This document shows, one piece after another, positions 1 to 10,248 of a stretch of DNA of 10,248 nt. The stretch's first letter is position 1. Each line of letters begins with the position of its first letter. The notes under the pieces were generated by a model. That model was not told the DNA's origin, did no database searches, and saw only the letters and a program-made list of their open reading frames with translations. This DNA comes from a virus (taxonomy: Duplodnaviria > Heunggongvirae > Uroviricota > Caudoviricetes): the IMG/VR virus record IMGVR_UViG_2663762839_000007, positions 1 to 10,248 of that record; one strand, given 5' to 3'. The position numbers and the translations under genes were made by a program.

Positions 1-1
1 C

Positions 2-280
2 CAGCATATCGTCTGGTTCCCGCCAGTGAGCATTAATCTCCTGCTTACTATTTTGCTCGCGGTCGTTGCCGGTACAGTGGGATGCTTGCTGCGTCTTCCT
101 TCCAGCACGATGCTCATCCCGATGCTGGCGGGCGCAGTGCTCCAGTCTGGTCAGCTCATCACCATCGAACTACCGGAATGGCTGCTGGCGATGGCGTATA
201 TGGCAATTGGCTGGCGGATTGGTCTTGGTTTCGATACTATGATCATGTATAGTTGGTTGTCGTTTTGCCATGTGGTTTAG
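2..280 (+). CDS. AbrB-family (PF05145-like) membrane protein, partial: reading frame is open from the window start, so the 5' end lies outside the window; the last ~15 codons are AT-rich and probably not native
   Basis: Hydrophobic translation with the AbrB-repeat pattern LP...ML.GA.L...LPEWLL.A...IGW.IG.GF; host-like GC and codon use up to about position 235, then an abrupt AT-rich stretch before the stop at 278-280. Family assignment is from recalled motif pattern, not a search. Confidence 0.5.
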   Translation, partial: QHIVWFPPVSINLLLTILLAVVAGTVGCLLRLPSSTMLIPMLAGAVLQSGQLITIELPEWLLAMAYMAIGWRIGLGFDTMIMYSWLSFCHVV

Positions 281-291
281 AAGGTGATTGA

Positions 292-1446
292 TTGTGTGTC
301 GATCCTTACCTATCATTGGTTTTATTCCAAAATCGAATAATTGGTGCTAAAGAAGTGAACAAAATTTCAGCGGTGAGCTTATTTACTGGGGCAGGAGGGA
401 TGGATGTCGGTTTCTCTAATGCCGGGTTCCGAACAGTTTGGGCCAATGATATAGATAAGGATGCATGTGATACATTTAAGCTTAATCATGAATCACCTGT
501 TTTTTGTGGTGATATTGATGAGATGCTAAGTGAATTGTCTGGGCTGAAAAATATAGGTTGTGTTTTTGGTGGGCCTCCATGCCAAGGATTTTCTGTGGCA
601 GGGAAAATGGACGCTCATGATCCACGTAGTAAGCTGGTTATGTCATTCATGCGGGCGGTGGATATAATTCAACCAGAATGCTTTGTTATGGAGAATGTTA
701 AGGCTTTAGCACAGTTGTCCAAATTTGAACCAGTTAGGTGTGAACTGTTTAAGATGGCTGAAAAGTCAGGCTATCGTTCAGCCTTGCTGGTGCTGAATTC
801 TAAAGATTTTGGCGTTCCTCAGAATAGGGAACGTATGTTTTTTATAGGGTTTCGTTCCGAAAATGATGTGAAACGAGTTGAGGCGGCGATAAAAAAATAC
901 CAATATCTTTCGCCAACAGTTGGTGAGATTATTCGGCCTTTAGGGCGAGCGGGTAATCCAAATAATTCAAGAGTCTGTAATGCAAGGATTACAAATGCTG
1001 CTAAGCCAGTATTACGGAAGTCACCTTACGCGGGAATGATGTTTAACGGGCAGGGAAGACCAATTAACCCGAATGGGTATGCTTCAACTATAGCTGCTTC
1101 TATGGGGGGGAATAGGACACCAATTATTGATGAAGAACACCTTTATGATGGCTCAACAAGTTATGTTGAGACTTATCATAATCATCTAATGAATGGTGGT
1201 GAGCCAAAAGATATGCACGATGTACCTAGTCGTTTACGTCGACTAACGATAGATGAGGCTCTTTTGATTCAAACATTCCCGAGTAATTATGTCTTTGTGG
1301 GGAAAAATTCGTCAATTTGGCGTCAGATAGGGAATGCTGTGCCTTGTAAATTGGCGCAGGCTGTTGCTGCAGGGGTTTTGGATGTCCTTACTGGTAAAAC
1401 TATTAATGTTCAAAAGAGTCAAACAGAGTTGAGTTTGAATTCGTAA
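292..1446 (+). CDS. DNA (cytosine-5)-methyltransferase, no adjacent restriction endonuclease (orphan); start uncertain (TTG 292 after AAGGTGA, or GTG 355 giving a typical short N-terminus before motif I)
   Basis: All canonical C5-MTase motifs are visible in order: motif I LFTGAGGMDVGF, motif IV GGPPCQGFS (catalytic Cys), motif VI ENVKAL, motif VIII QNRERMFFIGF, a variable target-recognition region, then motif X GNAVP. The gene is clearly more AT-rich than the flanking phage and host DNA. Confidence 0.9.
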   Translation: MCVDPYLSLVLFQNRIIGAKEVNKISAVSLFTGAGGMDVGFSNAGFRTVWANDIDKDACDTFKLNHESPVFCGDIDEMLSELSGLKNIGCVFGGPPCQGFSVAGKMDAHDPRSKLVMSFMRAVDIIQPECFVMENVKALAQLSKFEPVRCELFKMAEKSGYRSALLVLNSKDFGVPQNRERMFFIGFRSENDVKRVEAAIKKYQYLSPTVGEIIRPLGRAGNPNNSRVCNARITNAAKPVLRKSPYAGMMFNGQGRPINPNGYASTIAASMGGNRTPIIDEEHLYDGSTSYVETYHNHLMNGGEPKDMHDVPSRLRRLTIDEALLIQTFPSNYVFVGKNSSIWRQIGNAVPCKLAQAVAAGVLDVLTGKTINVQKSQTELSLNS

Positions 1447-1602
1447 AACGGATCACATTTTCAAACCGATGGATGCAGAATTTAACATTGCTGCATGAGT
1501 TTGCATCTTGAAATCATAAGCTGTACTGCTTAGCTTGACCAGAATTGATGTGGGTAAGAAGTGGTTATGCACCCGCATTAAAACCGCCCCATTAAGCGGG
1601 CG

Positions 1603-1621
1603 GGCGAGGCGGGGAAAGCAC
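1603..1621. other. P2-type cos site (19-nt cohesive-end sequence GGCGAGGCGGGGAAAGCAC)
   Basis: Exact 19-mer that I recall as the P2 cohesive end, located just beyond the 3' end of the portal gene Q, as in P2. Recognition is from memory and needs alignment to confirm. Confidence 0.55.
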
Positions 1622-1763
1622 TGCGCGCTGGCGGTGGTGCTGATTTTATTTTTTCAGCGTCTGAGCGCGTCTTGATGGCGTTTAGATTGTGCACCGGGGC
1701 GTTGGTGTGTCTGCGGGCTGTTTTGTGCGGTGGTGAGTGTGTGAGGGCGTGATGACGGGGTGT

Positions 1764-1785
1764 AAAAAAGCCGCCCGCAGGCGGC
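1764..1785 (-). terminator. Rho-independent terminator after the P-Q operon
   Basis: On the minus strand, GCCGCC-TGCG-GGCGGC hairpin followed by TTTTTT, immediately downstream of the Q stop. Confidence 0.6.
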
Positions 1786-1790
1786 GATGT

Positions 1791-2825
1791 TCAGCCGTTG
1801 TCAGTGTCCAGTGAGTAGTTTTTAAAGCGGATGACCTCCTGACCGAGCCAGCCGTTTATCTCGCGGATCCTGTCCTGTAACGGGATAAGCTCATTGCGGA
1901 CAAAGACCTTTGCCACTTTCTCAATATCGCCCAGTGACCCGACGTTCTCCGGCTTGCCGCCCATCAACTGAAAGGGGATGCGGTGCGCGTCCAGCAGGTC
2001 AGCGGCGCTGGCTTTTTTGATATTAAAAAAATCGTCCTTCGTTGCCACTTCACTGAGCGGGATAATTTTGATGCCGTCGGCTTTCCCCTGTGGGGCATAG
2101 AGAAACAGATTTTTAAAGTTGTTGCGGCCTTTCGACTTCACCATGTTTTCGCGGAGCATTTCGATATCGTTGCGATCCTGCACGGCATCGGTGACGTACA
2201 TGATGTATCCGGCATGAGCGCCGTTTTCGTAATACTTGCGGCGGAACAGCGTGGCCGACTCATTCAGCCAGGCAGAGTTAAGGGCGCTGAGATATTCCGG
2301 CAGGCCGTACAGCTCCTGATTAATATCCGGCTCCAGCAGGTGAAACACGGAGCCGGGTGCGAAGGCTGTCGGCTCGTTGAAGGACGGCACCCACCAGTAA
2401 ACATCCTCTTCCACACCACGGCGGGTATATTTTGCCGGTGAGGTTTCCAGTCTGATGACCTTACCGGTGGTGCTGTAACGCTTTTCCAGAAATGCATTAC
2501 CGAATACCAGAAAATCCAGCACAAAGCGGCTGAAATCCTGTTGCGAAAGCCACGGATGCGGGATAAATGTCGAGGCCAGAATATTACGTTTGACGTAAAT
2601 CGGTGAGCTGTGATGCACGGCAGCACGCAGGCTTTTTGCCAGACCGGTAAAGCTGACCGGTGGCTCATACCATCTGCCGTTACTGATGCACTCGACGTAA
2701 TCCAGAATGTCACGGCGGTCGAGTACCGGCACCGGCTCACCAAAGGTGAATGCCTCCATTTTCGGGGCGCTGGCGGTCATTTTTTTTGCCGCAGGTTGCG
2801 GTGTTTTCCCTTTTTTCTTGCTCAT
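1791..2825 (-). CDS. Q: Portal vertex protein (P2 gpQ-like)
   Basis: 344-aa ORF matching the P2 gpQ sequence and length as recalled; its ATG overlaps the P stop (ATGA), indicating translational coupling. Confidence 0.92.
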   Translation of the reverse strand: MSKKKGKTPQPAAKKMTASAPKMEAFTFGEPVPVLDRRDILDYVECISNGRWYEPPVSFTGLAKSLRAAVHHSSPIYVKRNILASTFIPHPWLSQQDFSRFVLDFLVFGNAFLEKRYSTTGKVIRLETSPAKYTRRGVEEDVYWWVPSFNEPTAFAPGSVFHLLEPDINQELYGLPEYLSALNSAWLNESATLFRRKYYENGAHAGYIMYVTDAVQDRNDIEMLRENMVKSKGRNNFKNLFLYAPQGKADGIKIIPLSEVATKDDFFNIKKASAADLLDAHRIPFQLMGGKPENVGSLGDIEKVAKVFVRNELIPLQDRIREINGWLGQEVIRFKNYSLDTDNG

Positions 2826-4597
2826 CAGTAAAACTCCAGAATGGTGGATGTCAGCGGGGTGCTGATACCGGCGGTGAGTGGCTCATTTAACAGGGCGTGC
2901 ATGGTCGCCCAGGCGAGATCGGCGTGGCTGGCTTCCTCGCTGCGGCTGGCCTCATAGGTGGCGCTGCGTCCGCTGCTGGTCATGGTCTTGCGGATAGCCA
3001 TAAACGAGCTGGTGATGTCGGTGGCGCTGACGTCATATTCCAGACAGCCACGGCGAATAACGTCTTTTGCCTTGAGCACCATTGCGGTTTTCATTTCCGG
3101 CGTGTAGCGGATATCTCGCGCGGCGGGATAGAACGAGCGCACGAGCTGGAACACGCCGACACCGAGGCCGGTGGCATCAATACCGATGTATTCGACGTTG
3201 TATTTTTCGGTGAGTTTGCGGATGGATTCCGCCTGAGTGGCAAAGTCCATGCCTTTCCACTGGTGACGCTCAAGTATTCTGAATTTGCCACCGGCCACCA
3301 CCGGCGGTGCCAGCACCACGCATCCGGCGCTGTCGCCACGGTGTGACGGGTCGTAACCAATCCATACCGGGCGGGAGCCGAACGGATTCGCGGCAAACGG
3401 CGCATAGTCTTCCCATTCTTCCAGCGTGTCGACCATGCAGCGTTGCAGCTCCTCGAACGGGAACACCGACGCCTTGTCGTCAACAAATTCACACATGAAC
3501 AGGTTTTTAAAATCGTCGGCGCTGTTTTCACGTTTGAGCTGCTCAATGTCGAACAGTGTGCAGCCACCTTTCAGGGCATCCTCAATGGTGACAATCTGCC
3601 GCCACTGGCCGTCCGCACAGAGAAGACCTCCGGCAAGGGCGTTATGACTGACGTCGATTTCCACACGTTCGGCGGCGCTGGCGCGTCCCCGGTTGAACAG
3701 TTCACCCGACCAGAACGGGTAGGCGTCGTGCGCCAGCGTGGACGGGGTGGAGAAATAGGTCGAGCGCAGGTGACTCTGTGAGGCCATACCTGATGCCACC
3801 TTACGCAGTACCTGAAAATTCGGGATCCAGAAAATCTCGTCGACGTACAGGTCGCCGTTATGGCTCTGCGCGGTGTTGGAGTTGGTGCCGAGAAAAATCA
3901 GTTTTGCGCCGTTATTGCCCAGGACAATCGGGTCACCGGTCAGGTCAACGTCAACCAGCCGGGCAAAGGCGATGATGTATTCGCGGAACACATACGCCTG
4001 CGTTTTACTGGCCGACAGAAAAATCTGGTTATGACCGGTTTTCAGGGCGCGCAGCAGCGCCTCGCGGGAAAAATAAAACGTCGCGCCAATCTGGCGGGAT
4101 TTCAGGATATCGCGGATGCGGTGCTCAAGCCCGGCACGATACCAGTGCAACTGATAGTCGAAAGACTGCTCAAAGAAAATCTGCTCCAGCTTTTCGATGG
4201 CCTCGTCACTGAAAAAATTCTTTTTCGGTTTGCGCCGCCCGCCTTTGTTGCGGTTAGCGACGTTCGGATTAAGGTCTGCCTCGTTGCCGGTCTGACTGTA
4301 ACGGTTTACCCGTGCCAGTCGTTCAATCTGGCGTCCGAGCAGGTCAATTTCCTTGAAGTCACCGCCGGTTTTCTGCGGTTTGATGATGAGCTGGGTCAGC
4401 CGCGCTTCCAGACTCATTTCGACACGGCTGATGGGGGCAACGCTGTCCCAGCCGTCGCGCTGTTTCCAGCTCTGCACCGTCGGGCGTTTCATCTGCAACA
4501 TGGCGGCAATCTGCGGCACGGAAAATCCCTGCCAGTACAGCAGCGCCGCCTGACGACGCGGGTCGTGTAAAAGAGTGGTGTCTGTGGTGATGGTCAT
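2825..4597 (-). CDS. P: Terminase large (ATPase) subunit (P2 gpP-like)
   Basis: The six-frame ORF starts at a TTG at 4627, but the ATG at 4597 is preceded by GAGG at a 5-nt spacing and gives MTITTDTTLL and a 590-aa product, matching P2 gpP as recalled. Confidence 0.92.
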   Translation of the reverse strand: MTITTDTTLLHDPRRQAALLYWQGFSVPQIAAMLQMKRPTVQSWKQRDGWDSVAPISRVEMSLEARLTQLIIKPQKTGGDFKEIDLLGRQIERLARVNRYSQTGNEADLNPNVANRNKGGRRKPKKNFFSDEAIEKLEQIFFEQSFDYQLHWYRAGLEHRIRDILKSRQIGATFYFSREALLRALKTGHNQIFLSASKTQAYVFREYIIAFARLVDVDLTGDPIVLGNNGAKLIFLGTNSNTAQSHNGDLYVDEIFWIPNFQVLRKVASGMASQSHLRSTYFSTPSTLAHDAYPFWSGELFNRGRASAAERVEIDVSHNALAGGLLCADGQWRQIVTIEDALKGGCTLFDIEQLKRENSADDFKNLFMCEFVDDKASVFPFEELQRCMVDTLEEWEDYAPFAANPFGSRPVWIGYDPSHRGDSAGCVVLAPPVVAGGKFRILERHQWKGMDFATQAESIRKLTEKYNVEYIGIDATGLGVGVFQLVRSFYPAARDIRYTPEMKTAMVLKAKDVIRRGCLEYDVSATDITSSFMAIRKTMTSSGRSATYEASRSEEASHADLAWATMHALLNEPLTAGISTPLTSTILEFY

Positions 4598-4770
4598 GAA
4601 TACCTCGCCGTGATGAATACACGGCAAGGCTACTGAGTCGCGCCCTGCGATTCGCTAAGGTGCTGTTGTGTCAGTGATAAGCCATCCGGGACTGATGGCG
4701 GAGGATGCGCATCGTCGGGAAACTGATGCCGACATGTGACTCCTCTAATCACTATTCAGGACTCCTGACA
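4598..4770. promoter_or_regulatory. Divergent late-promoter region between P (leftward) and O (rightward), equivalent to the Ogr-dependent P2 promoters
   Basis: Position between divergently transcribed late operons as in P2; contains a near-direct repeat ACTGATGGCG (4691-4700) and ACTGATGCCG (4722-4731). I could not find a clean TGT-N12-ACA Ogr-type dyad, so no individual site is called. Confidence 0.45.
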
Positions 4771-5625
4771 ATGGCAAAAAAAGTCTCAAAATTCTTTCGT
4801 ATCGGCGTTGAGGGTGACACCTGTGACGGGCGTGTCATCAGTGCGCAGGATATTCAGGAAATGGCCGAAACCTTTGACCCGCGTGTCTACGGTTGCCGCA
4901 TTAACCTGGAACATCTGCGCGGCATCCTGCCTGACGGTATTTTTAAGCGTTATGGCGATGTGGCCGAACTGAAGGCCGAAAAGATTGACGATGATTCGGC
5001 GCTGAAAGGCAAATGGGCGCTGTTTGCGAAAATCACCCCGACCGATGACCTTATCGCGATGAACAAGGCCGCGCAGAAGGTCTACACCTCAATGGAAATT
5101 CAGCCGAACTTTGCCAACACCGGCAAATGTTATCTGGTGGGGCTGGCCGTTACCGATGACCCGGCAAGCCTCGGTACGGAATACCTGGAATTCTGCCGCA
5201 CGGTAAAACACAACCCCCTGAACCGCTTCAAATTAAGCCCTGAAAACCTGATTTCAGTGGCAACGCCTGTTGAGCTGGAATTTGAAGACCTGCCTGAAAC
5301 CGTGTTCACCGCCCTGACCGAAAAGGTGAAATCCATTTTTGGCCGCAAACAGGCCAGCGATGACGCCCGTCTGAATGACGTGCATGAAGCGGTGACCGCT
5401 GTTGCTGAACATGTGCAGGAAAAACTGAGCGCCACTGAGCAGCGCCTCGCTGAGATGGAAACTGCCTTTTCCGCTCTTAAGCAGGAGGTGACTGACAGGG
5501 CGGATGAAACCAGCCAGGCATTCACCCGCCTGAAAAACAGCCTCGACCACACCGAAAGTCTGACCCAGCAGCGCCGCAGCAAGGCCACCGGCGGTGGCGG
5601 TGACGCGCTGATGACGAACTGCTGA
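4771..5625 (+). CDS. O: Capsid scaffolding protein (P2 gpO-like)
   Basis: The ORF track starts at 4705, but the ATG at 4771 gives MAKKVSKFFRIGVEGDTCDG and a 284-aa product, matching P2 gpO as recalled. Confidence 0.9.
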   Translation: MAKKVSKFFRIGVEGDTCDGRVISAQDIQEMAETFDPRVYGCRINLEHLRGILPDGIFKRYGDVAELKAEKIDDDSALKGKWALFAKITPTDDLIAMNKAAQKVYTSMEIQPNFANTGKCYLVGLAVTDDPASLGTEYLEFCRTVKHNPLNRFKLSPENLISVATPVELEFEDLPETVFTALTEKVKSIFGRKQASDDARLNDVHEAVTAVAEHVQEKLSATEQRLAEMETAFSALKQEVTDRADETSQAFTRLKNSLDHTESLTQQRRSKATGGGGDALMTNC

Positions 5626-5683
5626 CCGGCGTCAGTCAGTCCGGGAAAACCTTCACGATTAACCCTTAATTTCAGGAAAAACT

Positions 5684-6757
5684 ATGCGCCAGGAAACCCG
5701 CTTTAAATTTAATGCCTACCTGTCCCGTGTTGCCGAACTGAACGGCATCGACGCCGGTGATGTGTCGAAAAAATTCACCGTTGAACCGTCGGTCACCCAG
5801 ACCCTGATGAACACCATGCAGGAGTCCTCTGACTTTCTGACCCGCATCAACATTGTGCCGGTCAGCGAAATGAAAGGGGAAAAAATTGGCATCGGTGTCA
5901 CCGGCTCCATCGCCAGCACCACCGACACCGCCGGTGGCACCGAGCGTCAGCCGAAGGACTTCTCGAAGCTGGCGTCAAACAAGTACGAATGCGACCAGAT
6001 TAACTTCGATTTTTATATCCGCTACAAAACGCTGGACCTGTGGGCGCGTTATCAGGATTTCCAGCTCCGTGTCCGTAACGCCATTATCAAACGCCAGTCC
6101 CTTGATTTAATCATGGCCGGTTTTAACGGCGTGAGGCGTGCCGAAACCTCTGACCGCAGCAGCAATCCGATGCTGCAGGATGTGGCGGTCGGCTGGCTGC
6201 AGAAATACCGCAATGAAGCCCCGGCGCGCGTGATGAGCAAGGTCACTGACGAGGAAGGTCACACGACCTCTGAGGTTATCCGCGTGGGTAAGGGCGGTGA
6301 TTATGCCAGCCTTGACGCACTGGTGATGGATGCGACCAACAACCTGATTGAGCCGTGGTATCAGGAAGACCCTGACCTTGTGGTGATTGTGGGACGTCAG
6401 CTACTGGCGGACAAGTATTTTCCCATCGTCAACAAGGAGCAGGACAACAGCGAAATGCTGGCCGCTGACGTCATCATCAGCCAGAAACGCATCGGTAACC
6501 TGCCGGCGGTACGCGTCCCGTACTTCCCGGCGGATGCGATGCTCATCACGAAGCTGGAAAACCTGTCCATCTACTACATGGATGACAGCCATCGCCGCGT
6601 GATTGAGGAAAACCCGAAACTCGACCGCGTGGAGAACTACGAGTCAATGAACATTGATTACGTGGTGGAAGACTACGCCGCCGGTTGTCTGGTGGAAAAA
6701 ATTAAGGTCGGTGATTTCTCCACACCGGCTAAGGCGACCGCAGAGCCGGGAGCGTAA
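5684..6757 (+). CDS. N: Major capsid protein (P2 gpN-like)
   Basis: 357-aa ORF with an AGGAAA ribosome-binding site; sequence and length match P2 gpN as recalled. Confidence 0.92.
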   Translation: MRQETRFKFNAYLSRVAELNGIDAGDVSKKFTVEPSVTQTLMNTMQESSDFLTRINIVPVSEMKGEKIGIGVTGSIASTTDTAGGTERQPKDFSKLASNKYECDQINFDFYIRYKTLDLWARYQDFQLRVRNAIIKRQSLDLIMAGFNGVRRAETSDRSSNPMLQDVAVGWLQKYRNEAPARVMSKVTDEEGHTTSEVIRVGKGGDYASLDALVMDATNNLIEPWYQEDPDLVVIVGRQLLADKYFPIVNKEQDNSEMLAADVIISQKRIGNLPAVRVPYFPADAMLITKLENLSIYYMDDSHRRVIEENPKLDRVENYESMNIDYVVEDYAAGCLVEKIKVGDFSTPAKATAEPGA

Positions 6758-6760
6758 CCG

Positions 6761-7504
6761 ATGACGAGTCCCGCACAGCGCCACATGATGCGGGTCTCGG
6801 CAGCGATGACCGCGCAGCGGGAAGCCGCCCCGCTGCGACATGCAACTGTCTATGAGCAGATGCTGGTTAAGCTCGCCGCAGACCAGCGCACACTGAAAGC
6901 GATTTATTCAAAAGAGCTGAAGGCTGCGAAAAAACGCGAACTGCTGCCGTTCTGGTTGCCGTGGGTGAACGGTGTGCTTGAGCAGGGCAAAGGTGCACAG
7001 GATGACATTCTGATGACGGTCATGCTGTGGCGTCTGGATACCGGCGATATTGCCGGTGCGCTGGAGATTGCCCGTTATGCCCTGAAGTACGGTCTGACCA
7101 TGCCGGGTAAACACCGTCGCACCCCGCCGTACATGTTCACCGAGGAGGTGGCGCTCGCGGCCATGCGCGCCCACGCTGCCGGTGAGTCTGTGGATCCCCG
7201 CCTGCTGACGGACACCCTCGAACTGACCGCCACGGCTGACATGCCTGATGAAGTGCGCGCAAAGCTGCACAAAATCACCGGTCTGTTTCTGCGTGACGCT
7301 GGTGATGCCGCAGGGGCGCTGGCGCACCTGCAACGTGCGACACAGCTCGACTGTCAGGCAGGCGTCAAAAAAGAGATTGAACGACTGGAGCGGGAGCTGA
7401 AACCGAAGCCGGAGCCGCAGCCCAAAGCGGCCACCCGCGCCCCGCGTAAGACCCGGAGCGTGACACCGGCAAAACGTGGACGCCCGAAAAAGAAAGCCAG
7501 TTAA
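6761..7504 (+). CDS. M: Terminase small (endonuclease) subunit (P2 gpM-like)
   Basis: 247-aa ORF starting 3 nt after the N stop, with a basic C-terminal tail; matches P2 gpM as recalled. Confidence 0.9.
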   Translation: MTSPAQRHMMRVSAAMTAQREAAPLRHATVYEQMLVKLAADQRTLKAIYSKELKAAKKRELLPFWLPWVNGVLEQGKGAQDDILMTVMLWRLDTGDIAGALEIARYALKYGLTMPGKHRRTPPYMFTEEVALAAMRAHAAGESVDPRLLTDTLELTATADMPDEVRAKLHKITGLFLRDAGDAAGALAHLQRATQLDCQAGVKKEIERLERELKPKPEPQPKAATRAPRKTRSVTPAKRGRPKKKAS

Positions 7505-7603
7505 CAACCGAATGCGCCCCGCGCCAGGGCGGCACGCCGGTCAGTGAGGGTGAATCACCTGACACTGCACCGGCGTCCACCGCCCGACTTTTCAGAGGTA
7601 GTC

Positions 7604-8113
7604 ATGATGACGCTGATTATTCCGCGAAAGGAGGCTCCCGTGTCCGGTGAGGGTACGGTGGTCATCCCGCAACCGGCAGGCGACGAGCCGGTGATTAAAA
7701 ACACGTTCTTTTTTCCCGATATCGACCCGAAGCGCGTCCGGGAACGTATGCGCCTTGAGCAGACCGTCGCCCCCGCCCGTCTGCGTGAGGCCATCAAGTC
7801 AGGCATGGCTGAAACGAATGCGGAGCTGTACGAGTACCGCGAACAGAAAATTGCCGCCGGTTTTACGCGTCTGGCTGACGTCCCGGCGGACGACATCGAC
7901 GGTGAAAGCATCAAAGTTTTTTACTACGAGCGCGCCGTGTGTGCGATGGCGACCGCGTCGCTTTATGAGCGTTATCGCGGCGTGGATGCCAGTGCGAAAG
8001 GCGACAAGAAGGCCGACAGCATTGACAGCACCATTGATGAGCTGTGGCGGGATATGCGCTGGGCAGTGGCGCGCATCCAGGACAAGCCACGCTGCATCGT
8101 GAGTCAAATCTGA
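7604..8113 (+). CDS. L: Head completion/stabilisation protein (P2 gpL-like)
   Basis: The ATG at 7604 is preceded by GAGG and gives MMTLIIPRKEAP and 169 aa, the P2 gpL length as recalled; the longer ORF from 7544 has no ribosome-binding site. Confidence 0.88.
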   Translation: MMTLIIPRKEAPVSGEGTVVIPQPAGDEPVIKNTFFFPDIDPKRVRERMRLEQTVAPARLREAIKSGMAETNAELYEYREQKIAAGFTRLADVPADDIDGESIKVFYYERAVCAMATASLYERYRGVDASAKGDKKADSIDSTIDELWRDMRWAVARIQDKPRCIVSQI

Positions 8114-8316
8114 TGAAGACCTTTGCGCTACAGGGCGACACGCTCGACGCCATTTGTGTCCGGTATTACGGGCGCACTGAGGGCGTGGTCGAAGCCGTGC
8201 TCGCCGCAAATCCGGGACTGGCTGAACTGGGCGCGGTGCTGCCGCACGGCACCGCCGTCGAACTGCCCGACGTTCAGACCGCGCCCGTGGCTGAAACTGT
8301 CAATCTGTGGGAGTAA
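8113..8316 (+). CDS. X: Tail protein X (P2 gpX-like)
   Basis: 67-aa product MKTFALQGDTLDAIC...; its ATG overlaps the L stop (ATGA), as in P2. Confidence 0.85.
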   Translation: MKTFALQGDTLDAICVRYYGRTEGVVEAVLAANPGLAELGAVLPHGTAVELPDVQTAPVAETVNLWE

Positions 8317-8319
8317 CGC

Positions 8320-8547
8320 ATGACAGCAGAAGAAAAAAGCGTCCTGTCGCTTTTCATGATTGGGGTGCTGATTGTTGTCGGCAAGGTGCTTGCCGGTGGT
8401 GAACCCATCACCCCGCGTCTGTTTATCGGGCGCATGTTGCTCGGTGGTTTTGTCTCGATGGTTGCCGGTGTTGTTCTGGTGCAGTTTCCTGACCTGTCAT
8501 TGCCTGCGGTGTGCGGCATCGGCTCCATGCTGGGTATCGCCGGTTAA
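8320..8547 (+). CDS. Y: Holin (P2 gpY-like), probably C-terminally truncated
   Basis: 75-aa product with three hydrophobic segments; the ORF stops inside the third segment with no charged C-terminal tail. I recall P2 gpY as about 93 aa. The stop is followed directly by the ribosome-binding site and start of U. Confidence 0.6.
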   Translation: MTAEEKSVLSLFMIGVLIVVGKVLAGGEPITPRLFIGRMLLGGFVSMVAGVVLVQFPDLSLPAVCGIGSMLGIAG

Positions 8548-8561
8548 GGAGGTGACGAAAA

Positions 8562-9011
8562 ATGATGCTCGCGTTAGGTATGTTTGTTTTTATGCGCCAG
8601 ACGCTGCCACACCAGACCATGCAGCGTGAATCAGATTATCGCTGGCCGTCAAATTCCCGTATCGGCAAACGGGATGCCTTTCAGTTTCTCGGTGTGGGTG
8701 AGGAAAACATCACGCTTGCCGGTGTGCTTTATCCCGAACTGACCGGCGGAAAGCTGACGATGACCACGCTCAGGCTGATGGCAGAGGAGGGGCGGGCGTG
8801 GCCGTTGCTGGATGGCACCGGCATGATTTACGGCATGTATGTCATCAGCAGGGTGAGTGAAACAGGGAGTATTTTCTTTGCAGACGGCACACCCCGGAAA
8901 ATTGATTTTACGCTGTCACTCACCCGCGTTGATGAATCACTGGCCGCGCTTTATGGCGATATCGGTATGCCAGCATGCCGCACATGCGCGTACAAGCCGC
9001 TATATCACTGA
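8562..9011 (+). CDS. U: Tail protein U (P2 gpU-like) with a non-native 3' end that reads out of frame into ogr
   Basis: AAGGAGGTGA ribosome-binding site before the ATG at 8562. The first ~135 aa look like gpU; the last 14 codons (MPACRTCAYKPLYH) are the ogr zinc-finger region read in another frame, and gene D is absent. Confidence 0.7.
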   Translation: MMLALGMFVFMRQTLPHQTMQRESDYRWPSNSRIGKRDAFQFLGVGEENITLAGVLYPELTGGKLTMTTLRLMAEEGRAWPLLDGTGMIYGMYVISRVSETGSIFFADGTPRKIDFTLSLTRVDESLAALYGDIGMPACRTCAYKPLYH

Positions 9012-9168
9012 CACGACAAAAGAGCGTTATCACCAGTGTCAGAACGTGAATTGCAGCGCCACGTTCATCACTTATGAGTCGGTACAGCGATACATCGTGA
9101 AGCCGGGAGAAGTCCACGCCGTAAGGCCGCACCCATTGCCGTCAGGGCAGCAAATTATGTGGATGTAA
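8953..9168 (+). CDS. ogr: Ogr/Delta-family zinc-finger late-gene activator, N-terminally altered (possible pseudogene)
   Basis: Translation from ATG 8953 gives MAISVCQHAAHARTSRYITDTTKERYHQCQNVNCSATF..., matching P2 Ogr from Cys7 onward as recalled. The N-terminal MFHCPLC is replaced by MAISVC, so the first cysteine of the C4 finger is missing, and no ribosome-binding site precedes the ATG. Confidence 0.75.
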   Translation: MAISVCQHAAHARTSRYITDTTKERYHQCQNVNCSATFITYESVQRYIVKPGEVHAVRPHPLPSGQQIMWM

Positions 9169-9180
9169 TTACAAACAGAA

Positions 9181-9208
9181 AGCCCCCTCAGTCGAGGGGG
9201 CTTTTTTG
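9181..9208 (+). terminator. Rho-independent terminator downstream of ogr
   Basis: AGCCCCCTC-AGTC-GAGGGGGCT perfect 9-bp stem followed by TTTTTT, 13 nt after the ogr stop. Confidence 0.85.
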
Positions 9209-9270
9209 TCGATGTGGTCAATGTGTGGACGTGACCAGAAATAAATCCTTTTATTTCATGTGATTAGATA

Positions 9271-9297
9271 TCAAAAAATGTCACCAATAACTGACAT
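9271..9297 (-). pseudogene. pflA: pflA 5' remnant: start codon plus four codons (MSVIG) fused to unrelated sequence, stop after 8 codons
   Basis: Minus strand reads GGAGAAACACCGCA-ATG TCA GTT ATT GGT, a ribosome-binding site followed by the MSVIG start I recall for E. coli PflA, lying 191 bp downstream of the pflB stop. Homology ends after codon 5 (GAC ATT TTT TGA). Confidence 0.6.
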
Positions 9298-9419
9298 TGC
9301 GGTGTTTCTCCAGATGTGGCCCATCTGAGGCCGTGTTGGTGCGCAGCTCGAAGGCTACGTCGAGTCTGTTTTGGCAGTCACCTTAAAGTATAGATAGCTG
9401 ACAAAAAAGGCTCTCGTGC

Positions 9420-9445
9420 TAAAAAAGGCCCCACTTTCGTGGAGC
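9420..9445 (-). terminator. Rho-independent terminator downstream of pflB
   Basis: On the minus strand, GGCTCCAC-GAAA-GTGGGGCC hairpin followed by TTTTTT, about 45 nt after the pflB stop. Confidence 0.7.
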
Positions 9446-9488
9446 CTTTATTGTACGCTTTTTACTGTACGATTTCAGTCAAATCTAA

Positions 9489-10248
9489 TTACATAGATTG
9501 AGTGAAGGTACGAGTAATAACGTCCTGCTGCTGTTCTTTAGTCAGCGAGTTGAAACGTACTGCGTAGCCAGATACACGGATGGTCAGCTGCGGATATTTT
9601 TCCGGGTTTTCCATCGCGTCAAGCAGCATTTCACGGTTCATCACGTTAACGTTCAGGTGCTGACCACCTTCGATGGATGCTTCGTGGTGGAAGTAACCAT
9701 CCATCAGACCTGCCAGGTTGGTCTTACGAACTTCGTCGTCTTTACCCAGTGCGTTCGGAACGATAGAGAAGGTGTAGGAGATACCATCTTTAGCGTAAGC
9801 AAACGGCAGTTTAGCAACGGAAGTCAGAGACGCTACAGCACCTTTCTGGTCACGACCGTGCATCGGGTTAGCACCCGGTCCGAACGGCGCGCCAGCACGA
9901 CGACCGTCTGGGGTGTTACCAGTTTTCTTACCATACACAACGTTAGACGTGATGGTCAGAACAGACTGAGTCGGGATAGCGTCACGGTAGGTGTGCAGTT
10001 TCTGAATTTTCTTCATGAAACGTTCTACCAGGTCAACAGCCAGGTCATCTACACGCGGATCGTTGTTACCAAACTGCGGGTATTCGCCTTCGATTTCGAA
10101 GTCGATAGCCAGACCGTCTTCGTCACGAATCGGTTTAACTTTCGCATATTTGATTGCAGACAGGGAGTCAGCAGCAACGGACAGACCAGCGATACCACAC
10201 GCCATGGTGCGGATAACGTCACGGTCGTGCAGCGCCATCAGAGAGGCT
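9489..10248 (-). CDS. pflB: Pyruvate formate-lyase (glycyl radical enzyme), C-terminal ~250 codons; the 5' end lies beyond the window
   Basis: Translation ends ...[34 protein letters not shown], containing the glycyl-radical motif RVSGYAV and the PflB C-terminus as recalled; codon usage is strongly E. coli-like and the frame stays open to the window end. Confidence 0.88.

Follow-up and report, generated by a model that had tools for sequence, protein, structure and literature searches.

The window analysed here is a 10,248 nt stretch of DNA (positions 1 to 10,248 of IMG/VR virus record IMGVR_UViG_2663762839_000007) that carries the remnant of a P2-type prophage (Peduovirus), in which a deletion has joined gene U to ogr, the gene of the late activator Ogr. 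Taken alone, this junction (J2) is an ordinary strain-specific deletion in a decaying prophage. Its ogr end, however, is a breakpoint precise to a single nucleotide (TTTA|TGCCAGC, P2 24052/53), and the same breakpoint was found joined to at least 20 upstream prophage sites, 13 of them seen on DNA and 7 via fusion proteins. It is highly probable that J2 is a real deletion, with the consequences for ogr described below, and that the ogr hot spot is itself real. Cryptic P2 remnants are a known class, and what is new here is the reproducible, nucleotide-precise deletion hot spot in ogr, of which a search of the full-text literature found no description.

When compared with the P2 genome (NC_001895) by blastn, the window falls into three collinear blocks of 97.6–99.3% identity:

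1603–8546, block 1, equivalent to P2 1–6942: cos, Q, P, O, N, M, L, X and Y nt 1–227
8541–8967, block 2, equivalent to P2 22291–22717 (99.3%): 7 nt from the end of T, with the stop codon, and U nt 1–406
8966–9258, block 3, equivalent to P2 24052–24342 (97.6%): ogr from nt 17, the terminator and the Int P arm

P2 6943–22290 and 22718–24051 are missing from the window. The full-length prophage of NCTC10973, which occupies the same attachment (att) site, aligns with the window in the same three blocks. The features around the second gap are as follows:

8541–8967, + strand, U island of 427 bp: the 3' end of T (7 nt, stop codon included) and U nt 1–406, preceded by its native ribosome-binding site
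8562–9011, + strand, U' fusion open reading frame (ORF) of 149 aa: gpU residues 1–135 followed by 14 out-of-frame ogr codons (MPACRTCAYKPLYH)
8953–9168, + strand, Ogr' ORF of 71 aa: MAISV followed by Ogr residues 7–72, with three of the four zinc cysteines, no Shine-Dalgarno (SD) sequence and no promoter of its own
8966–8967, + strand, U/ogr deletion junction J2: a common TA equivalent to both P2 22716–22717 and P2 24052–24053
8968–8970, + strand, TGC codon of Ogr Cys7, with which the kept ogr reading frame begins

At base level the U and ogr blocks overlap by this TA only. J2 deletes P2 22718–24051, or 1,334 bp of P2-equivalent sequence, and joins U codon 135 to ogr nt 17. Lost with it are the last 74 nt of U, the whole of D, the annotated −35/−10 region of ogr (P2 23973–24002), the SD sequence, the start codon and codons 1–5 including Cys4. 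The U' frame opens at ATG 8562 and closes at a stop codon at 9009–9011; it retains a complete GpU domain (Pfam PF06995, profile positions 1–120 of 120 at residues 6–125), and only the C-terminal 24 residues have been replaced. An initial annotation, made from the sequence alone, had described U as reading 14 codons into ogr out of frame, ogr homology as beginning at the second cysteine codon (TGC at 8968), gene D as removed at the fusion, and U as an island between two breakpoints, J2 being a second deletion beside the one between Y and U. Alignment with P2 bears out each of these points to the base: D lies within the absent interval, and the 427 bp of U sit between J2 and the Y/T junction (J1).

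Two trivial sources for J2 were considered and rejected. Run ERR738831, assembled independently by Logan, matches window positions 5178–9600, including J1 and J2, at 100% identity, and an overlap of 2 nt is too short to produce a de Bruijn graph misjoin, so an assembly artefact does not account for it. A native U-ogr gene order, which the initial annotation had named as the alternative to a deletion, was absent from all 50,697 phage records and all 5,426 complete E. coli genomes examined, and neither of the exact junctions J1 and J2 occurs in either collection. The exact U' fusion protein is present in two contigs only, CDRI01000239.1 (GCA_000946855.1, the same sequence as the window) and the ERR738831 contig. 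The exact J2 junction also gave no match in GTDB representative genomes or JGI metagenomes, and a relaxed pattern (a base other than T before TATGCC...) gave none in GTDB representatives, JGI metagenomes or IMG/VR; the other hot-spot instances described here were all drawn from a protein and contig collection and from complete E. coli genomes.

The recurrence of the ogr breakpoint emerged from a protein search with the 71-aa Ogr' ORF. The search yielded fusions of Ogr to unrelated N-termini, in which the join lies directly ahead of Cys7 and the preceding residue is V, I or L (codon xTA). Thirteen different junctions were checked on DNA and read ...xTA|TG(C/T) followed by CAGCATGCC (CAGCATGCCGC). 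The left partners, given as P2 positions, are:

22717 (U, the window), 26121 (cox) and 18735 (FI), verified on DNA
1502, 1586 and 2117 (P), ~351 (Q) and 3248 (O), verified on DNA
27673 (orf82), ~28276 (A), 11550 (J), ~8951 (S) and a C-cox intergenic site, verified on DNA
1398 (P), 6932 (Y), 18477 and 18032 (FI) and ~603 (Q), inferred from peptides of the same 90% protein cluster
a site in FII and a second site in J, inferred from peptides found by a search with the out-of-frame tail (46 aa)

The hot-spot loci occupy three att sites (pflB, yegQ/trhP and cpxP-fieF) with unrelated att cores. Because the ogr segments kept at these loci carry different alleles (AAGCC or AAGTC; TGC or TGT at the Cys7 codon), the deletions are consistent with independent events. 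Three of the junctions lie in complete genomes (EN-1077, P276M and GZ2408P). Only one N-terminal Ogr fusion was found at another position, in protein P0042, where Ogr begins at KPGEV. This mosaic ORF has the N-terminus of Cox, then eight residues of the holin Y (AGVVLVQF), then Ogr from KPGEV; it contains two junctions and a 24-nt island.

In the complete genomes, the right half of the site (P2 24052–24151) is present in 2,315 copies compared with 2,299 for the left half (23954–24053). Some 16 ogr copies are thus right-only, against one that is left-only; by record, eleven have the right half only, and about one has the left half only. The right-half matches that were sampled all start at query position 1, and the three truncated copies that were inspected start at P2 24052.

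Draft assemblies hold further contig ends at the same place. In eight of them (loci L022–L029), representing four flanking contexts, contigs start 0–2 nt to the left of TTATGCCAGC (TTATGCC), and GCA_003338955.1 has two contig ends at the ogr site, one at fieF and one at pflB. This suggests that more hot-spot junctions, or repeats, are hidden at contig breaks. One apparent further instance, protein P0041 from locus L016 (GCA_003730615.1), was set aside: at 3323–3508 it shows an ogr-ogr tandem duplication containing N, with a 61-aa ORF that ends in the MPACRTCAYKPLYH tail, and is most likely a scaffolding or assembly artefact.

The same endpoint was reached in the laboratory. An IS3-adjacent deletion has been described in a chemostat-evolved K-12 clone (PMC3708739), in which 2,668 bp with yegS, yegR and part of ogrK are lost. 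In MG1655, the insertion sequence (IS) IS3 lies at 3077–4334 of the locus and the T of TGCCAGC at 7003, and the interval between them, 4335–7002, is exactly 2,668 bp; the primer arm given in PMC3708739 (...GCATGCTGGCATA) agrees with this computed endpoint. The IS3 end is joined to TGCCAGC at the same point, and with the same side retained, as in the natural junctions, with a 1-nt ambiguity. The chance of such a coincidence is less than 1 in 1,000 within the ~1.7-kb interval able to satisfy selection.

The K-12 event raises the question of whether an insertion hot spot for an IS3-family element underlies all of the junctions, the DNA to the left being lost by adjacent deletion or by IS–IS recombination and the IS disappearing later. 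IS3 matches are found in 4,611 of the 5,426 complete genomes (120-nt query, its first half being the IS3 end), and the laboratory deletion is IS3-adjacent and ends at the ogr site. The natural junctions differ from it in lacking an IS and in having ordinary prophage DNA as the left partner: the 13 junctions verified on DNA and the three truncated copies from complete genomes are all free of an IS, and the join IS3|TGCCAGC occurs in none of the 5,426 complete genomes. Five IS3 copies were also compared at their flanks, and no common motif resembling the ogr site emerged. Such a route would need several rare steps, with loss of the IS every time, and no intermediates were seen in the data examined. 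As a general explanation it is quite improbable.

The view implicit in the initial annotation, that the ogr breakpoint is simply where one random illegitimate (microhomology) deletion happened to end during prophage decay, does not survive these comparisons and is scarcely credible. It agrees with the junctions of the window, where the overlaps are short (2 nt at J2, 6 nt at J1 and none at the third junction, J0, described below) with no IS or long repeat at any of them, and with J2 being unique to one isolate. Repeat-mediated losses in other remnants also agree with it, such as that in KFu022 at the pflB site (locus L002, 12950–13010), where S through T were lost via a common stretch of ~15 nt (CCGGCTGGCCGCTCT, P2 ~8951|22129); this deletion shows ordinary repeat-mediated decay occurring beside the hot-spot events. 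Against it, one and the same phosphodiester of ogr has been joined to at least 20 partners and was used again in a laboratory clone, the left sites have a sequence bias, and P0042 is the only N-terminal fusion elsewhere in ogr. Microhomology-driven deletion would be expected to give scattered breakpoints and to favour longer overlaps, while the ogr breakpoint is invariant.

The left partner sites were compared with each other (18 sites). All natural left partners natively end in TA, giving a 2-nt identity at every junction, and all lie upstream of the ogr site, within the prophage, at distances of 1.3 to 31 kb. Position −1, immediately before the TA, is a purine in 16 of the 18 and a T in only one, compared with 36% expected in P2 (p = 0.003). 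The base at −2 is G or T in 14/18 and that at −3 is G or C in 16/18, describing an S-K-R-TA context. A C at −4 of the T|A cut in half of the sites (9/18, p = 0.02) is suggestive only. The depletion of T at −1 is opposite to what simple microhomology predicts, as ogr itself has T at this position. The left breakpoints also show some clustering, with 6/18 falling in P2 351–2117 (Q and P, which are transcribed oppositely) and 3/18 in 18032–18735 (FI); this could reflect the mechanism, selection for losing lysis or tail genes, or detection bias.

The 13 partners verified on DNA and all of the peptide-mapped partners represent collinear deletions and none is inverted, in a sample that is biased towards ORF-forming junctions. 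This bears on the possibility of a conservative exchange, in which a serine-type recombinase or a TA-targeting transposase would use ogr as a good site and the R-TA sequences as pseudo-sites, with the crossover within TA. Single-nucleotide precision, an obligatory TA, the lack of other homology and a degenerate partner motif are all features of such reactions, and tail-fibre invertases are often carried by P2-type prophages. A palindromic TA crossover, or intramolecular transposition, nevertheless predicts as many inversions as deletions, and none was found among the orientable left partners. The ogr site has no obvious dyad symmetry by inspection, and neither an inverted repeat nor a second element end or recombinase site was found at the fixed junction. 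The K-12 event, moreover, reached the same endpoint with the IS3 end CA and not with TA. The phage integrase is an unlikely agent given three unrelated att cores, and a secondary att site for it was rejected for this reason and because the integrases differ between att sites. Conservative exchange is therefore considered unlikely. Break-and-rejoin, or template switching, is favoured over exchange by a transposase or recombinase because the partners are collinear and none is inverted.

The reading we prefer, at a probability of roughly 45%, is that a site-specific, polar break-and-rejoin event takes place at the TpA step of the ogr site, or that an end is stalled or nicked there. A recurrent break or stalled end would form at the TpA of TTTA|TGCCAGC. 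The right-hand end would be protected from resection and kept to the base, while the DNA to its left would be lost. The 2-nt TA would then serve to join the protected end to an upstream R-TA site flanked by G/C. Where joining rebuilds the T at −1 (TTATGCC), the product would stay susceptible to further breakage and would for that reason be depleted. From the K-12 map we infer that replication is co-directional with ogr at all three att sites.

Several points weigh against this reading. No nuclease, nick site or structure that accounts for the fixed end was identified; possible hairpins or cruciforms at the ogr site fold no better than shuffled sequences (z −0.6 to +1.3), and there is no terminal inverted repeat, the common 330 bp containing no inverted repeat of TGCCAGCATGCC. 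Rejoining by ordinary microhomology would favour a third matching T and would not fix one phosphodiester. Most instances were found via called fusion ORFs, a bias towards IS-free junctions with an open frame upstream, and an ORF-based census may under-sample inversions and IS-containing intermediates. Three of ~16 truncated ogr copies in the complete genomes were inspected, and the K-12 endpoint was computed on MG1655 from the BW2952 coordinates of the published deletion, which leaves the 1-nt ambiguity. Among known sites, the P2 ori nick site was compared with the ogr site by eye and no convincing match was seen. The same was true, by eye, of the consensus sequences for dif/Xer, Chi, gyrase and topoisomerase I cleavage, and EcoKI. 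A more specific form of the break-and-rejoin reading, put forward tentatively, is that the TpA at codons 6/7 of ogr is a previously undescribed fragile point, where a host activity or an intrinsic property of the DNA would produce the protected end and a polar loss of upstream sequence by deletion only.

Fixed-end illegitimate recombination has precedents at nick sites, at the rolling-circle origins of M13 and pC194, and at topoisomerase-associated crossover points. The ogr hot spot resembles these in having one endpoint fixed and the other variable, little homology, and polar deletions only. It differs in that its fixed end lies inside a prophage regulatory gene and its partners have an obligatory TA in an S-K-R context, and we know of no nickase, origin or topoisomerase site at this position. 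The defining component of fixed-end recombination, or of IS-adjacent deletion, was not found at the ogr hot spot. Remnants with two to six junctions, small islands and overlaps of 0–15 nt resemble products of template switching of the fork stalling and template switching (FoSTeS) or microhomology-mediated break-induced replication (MMBIR) type, but such switching would not on its own be expected to place the junction at the same nucleotide in strain after strain. It is rare for a natural deletion hot spot to be so precise without an IS, a repeat or a known recombination site.

If a defined break or stalled end does occur at ogr, it would provide a tractable in vivo system for illegitimate recombination, and would account for the way in which P2-family prophages, present in ~38% of complete E. 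coli genomes, are disarmed into head-only or tail-only remnants. Many database proteins named OgrK or "DNA-binding transcriptional regulator" would be fusion artefacts that lack a zinc ligand. If the TpA is a fragile point, loss of the late activator would be a preferred, mechanistically programmed route by which P2-family prophages are grounded in E. coli.

Small islands are left in several hot-spot remnants, including 175 bp of A in P276M, 707 bp of FI and a separate Q' island in locus L009, and the 427 bp of U in the window. In the hot-spot remnant of EN-1077 (locus L017, 587–4576), the P2 cargo position beside Q is occupied by two reverse-transcriptase genes and a retron Ec48-family effector; loci L009 and L037 have AAA-ATPase cargo genes in this position. 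In Z217-2 (locus L019, NZ_CP159630, 1–6600), the P2-type prophage beside yegQ is heavily fragmented: at least six junctions separate many pieces (P', R, tail-fibre segments, FI' and a U-D' fusion), some collinear and others inverted. Its ogrK is intact, and its U-to-D deletion (P2 22769|23886) is an independent one that bypasses the hot spot.

In the window, the deletion leaves ogr without its start. From ATG 8953 the Ogr' ORF reads MAISV-CQHAAHARTSRY..., and its last 66 residues are identical to P2 Ogr 7–72. It scores 67.2 bits against the Ogr_Delta family (Pfam PF04606, cut-off 26.3), matching profile positions 4–47 of 47 only. A passage in PMC3931495, citing Lee and Christie (1990) and Pountney et al. 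(1997), gives the zinc site of Ogr/Delta proteins as CX2CX22CX4C with four cysteine ligands. Ogr' does not have this motif: it begins MAISVC and keeps only Cys7, Cys30 and Cys35. Cys4 is present in 12/12 natural full-length Ogr homologues, down to 61% identity, and its importance is taken from this conservation together with the secondary citation above. No SD-like sequence is found in the 19 nt before ATG 8953 (GAATCACTGGCCGCGCTTT), where the native gene has GAGGTG; the promoter and ribosome-binding site of ogr were within the deleted interval, and the Ogr' ORF is nested in the translated U' frame. The earlier description of this ORF as a three-cysteine variant with no ribosome-binding site is thus upheld.

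It is a reasonable inference from P2 biology, in keeping with the initial annotation, that the three-cysteine fragment is inactive. With ogr truncated and unexpressed, the Ogr-dependent head operons and cos would be silent unless Ogr, or a Delta-type activator of P4, were given in trans. Because it fails the defining four-cysteine test, Ogr' should not be filed as a functional member of the Ogr/Delta family. That Ogr' is instead a functional or partly functional activator, making the remnant self-sufficient for late transcription, is very improbable. It retains 66 of 72 residues identical to P2 Ogr and a Pfam score well over the threshold, and transcripts reading through from the O operon could now reach it, as there is no terminator ahead of 9179. 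Set against this are the absence of Cys4 from a zinc site described (in the PMC3931495 passage) as four-cysteine and conserved in all 12 homologues, the lack of a promoter and SD sequence, and the position of the ORF inside a frame that is itself translated.

The remnant is located between pflA and pflB, with the 3' end of pflB at 9489–10248 on the minus strand. Nucleotide collinearity and late gene order place it among the P2-type prophages. It is not a complete phage-forming genome, which would hold int, C, cox, B, A, the lysis and tail genes, D and ogr. Its main features are:

1603–1621, + strand, cos cohesive-end sequence, equivalent to P2 1–19, with cosR-side sequence preceding (1575–1621)
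1791–8316, head module, consisting of the seven genes that follow
1791–2825, − strand, Q
2825–4597, − strand, P
4771–5625, O
5684–6757, N
6761–7504, M
7604–8113, L
8113–8316, X
4661–4691, no strand assigned, equivalent of the annotated P2 activator (Ogr) site common to the divergent late promoters pP/pO
9179–9204, + strand, rho-independent terminator of ogr/the F operon, intact and now the first that can be recognised after the O operon
9283–9295, + strand, attR core (ACCAATAACTGAC), a repeat present at both ends of the NCTC10973 prophage

The head module was previously noted as intact, and this holds: Q, P, O, N, M, L and X are full length and without internal stops, with 98–100% protein identity to P2, and the terminase large subunit is identical at 590/590 residues. 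Over 180 positions, the pP/pO control region has a single difference from P2. Between X and 9179–9204 a terminator scan found no ogr-type terminator-like site; a weaker match at 8423–8447 is within Y sequence and is also present in P2. The O-operon transcript would accordingly be likely to continue through Y', U' and 'ogr.

The attR core lies beside ogr at a known att site, and the order ogr-attR-pflB is the same as in NCTC10973 and KFu022. The ogrK-yegZ(D') remnant of K-12, located beside yegQ, is likewise a P2-type right end (ogr, terminator, attR) left at a host gene, with the same family, gene order and att logic. The K-12 remnant keeps an intact ogrK with its promoter and a fragment of D, whereas ogr of the window is cut at nt 17. 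Unlike the K-12 ogrK-D' remnant, the window remnant keeps cos and the full head module, without tail, lysis, replication or integration genes.

Two other junctions are present in the window, and both look like ordinary illegitimate joins. The initial annotation had counted two breakpoints, of which J1 and J2 both stand, and had overlooked a third (J0), where int through A were lost. The features concerned are:

8541–8546, + strand, Y/T deletion junction J1, with a 6-nt microhomology (CGGTTA)
8320–8547, + strand, truncated holin Y', with 75 of 93 aa and closed by the former T stop codon
236–237, no strand assigned, junction J0, where abrB nt 745 is joined, with no microhomology, to prophage DNA just upstream of a dcm-type methyltransferase gene

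J1 deletes P2 6943–22290, including K, lysABC, R, S, the baseplate, fibre, sheath and tube genes, and T. Y codon 75 is thereby joined to the T stop codon, Y' running in frame into the final two codons of T and its stop. The native U ribosome-binding site follows directly after Y', which places U' as a gene of the O operon.

The full-length NCTC10973 prophage has the order int, C, cox, B, A, a SacI-family endonuclease gene, a small helix-turn-helix (HTH) gene, a cytosine methyltransferase gene, Q ... D, ogrK. J0, which lies outside the coverage of the Logan contig, removes or relocates int through A together with the SacI-family endonuclease gene, abrB sequence replacing everything to the left of the dcm-type gene. 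Window positions 1–236 correspond to abrB nt 510–745 (K-12 map ~0.75 Mb), in a chromosomal orientation opposite to that of pflB (~0.95 Mb). Because a plain deletion would take out essential genes, J0 implies an inversion of ~200 kb with one end in the prophage, although a chimeric contig could also produce it. The methyltransferase gene at 292–1446 has become an orphan DNA cytosine methyltransferase, cut off by J0 from the SacI-family endonuclease and small HTH genes that are its partners in NCTC10973 (locus L005, 18733–21210).

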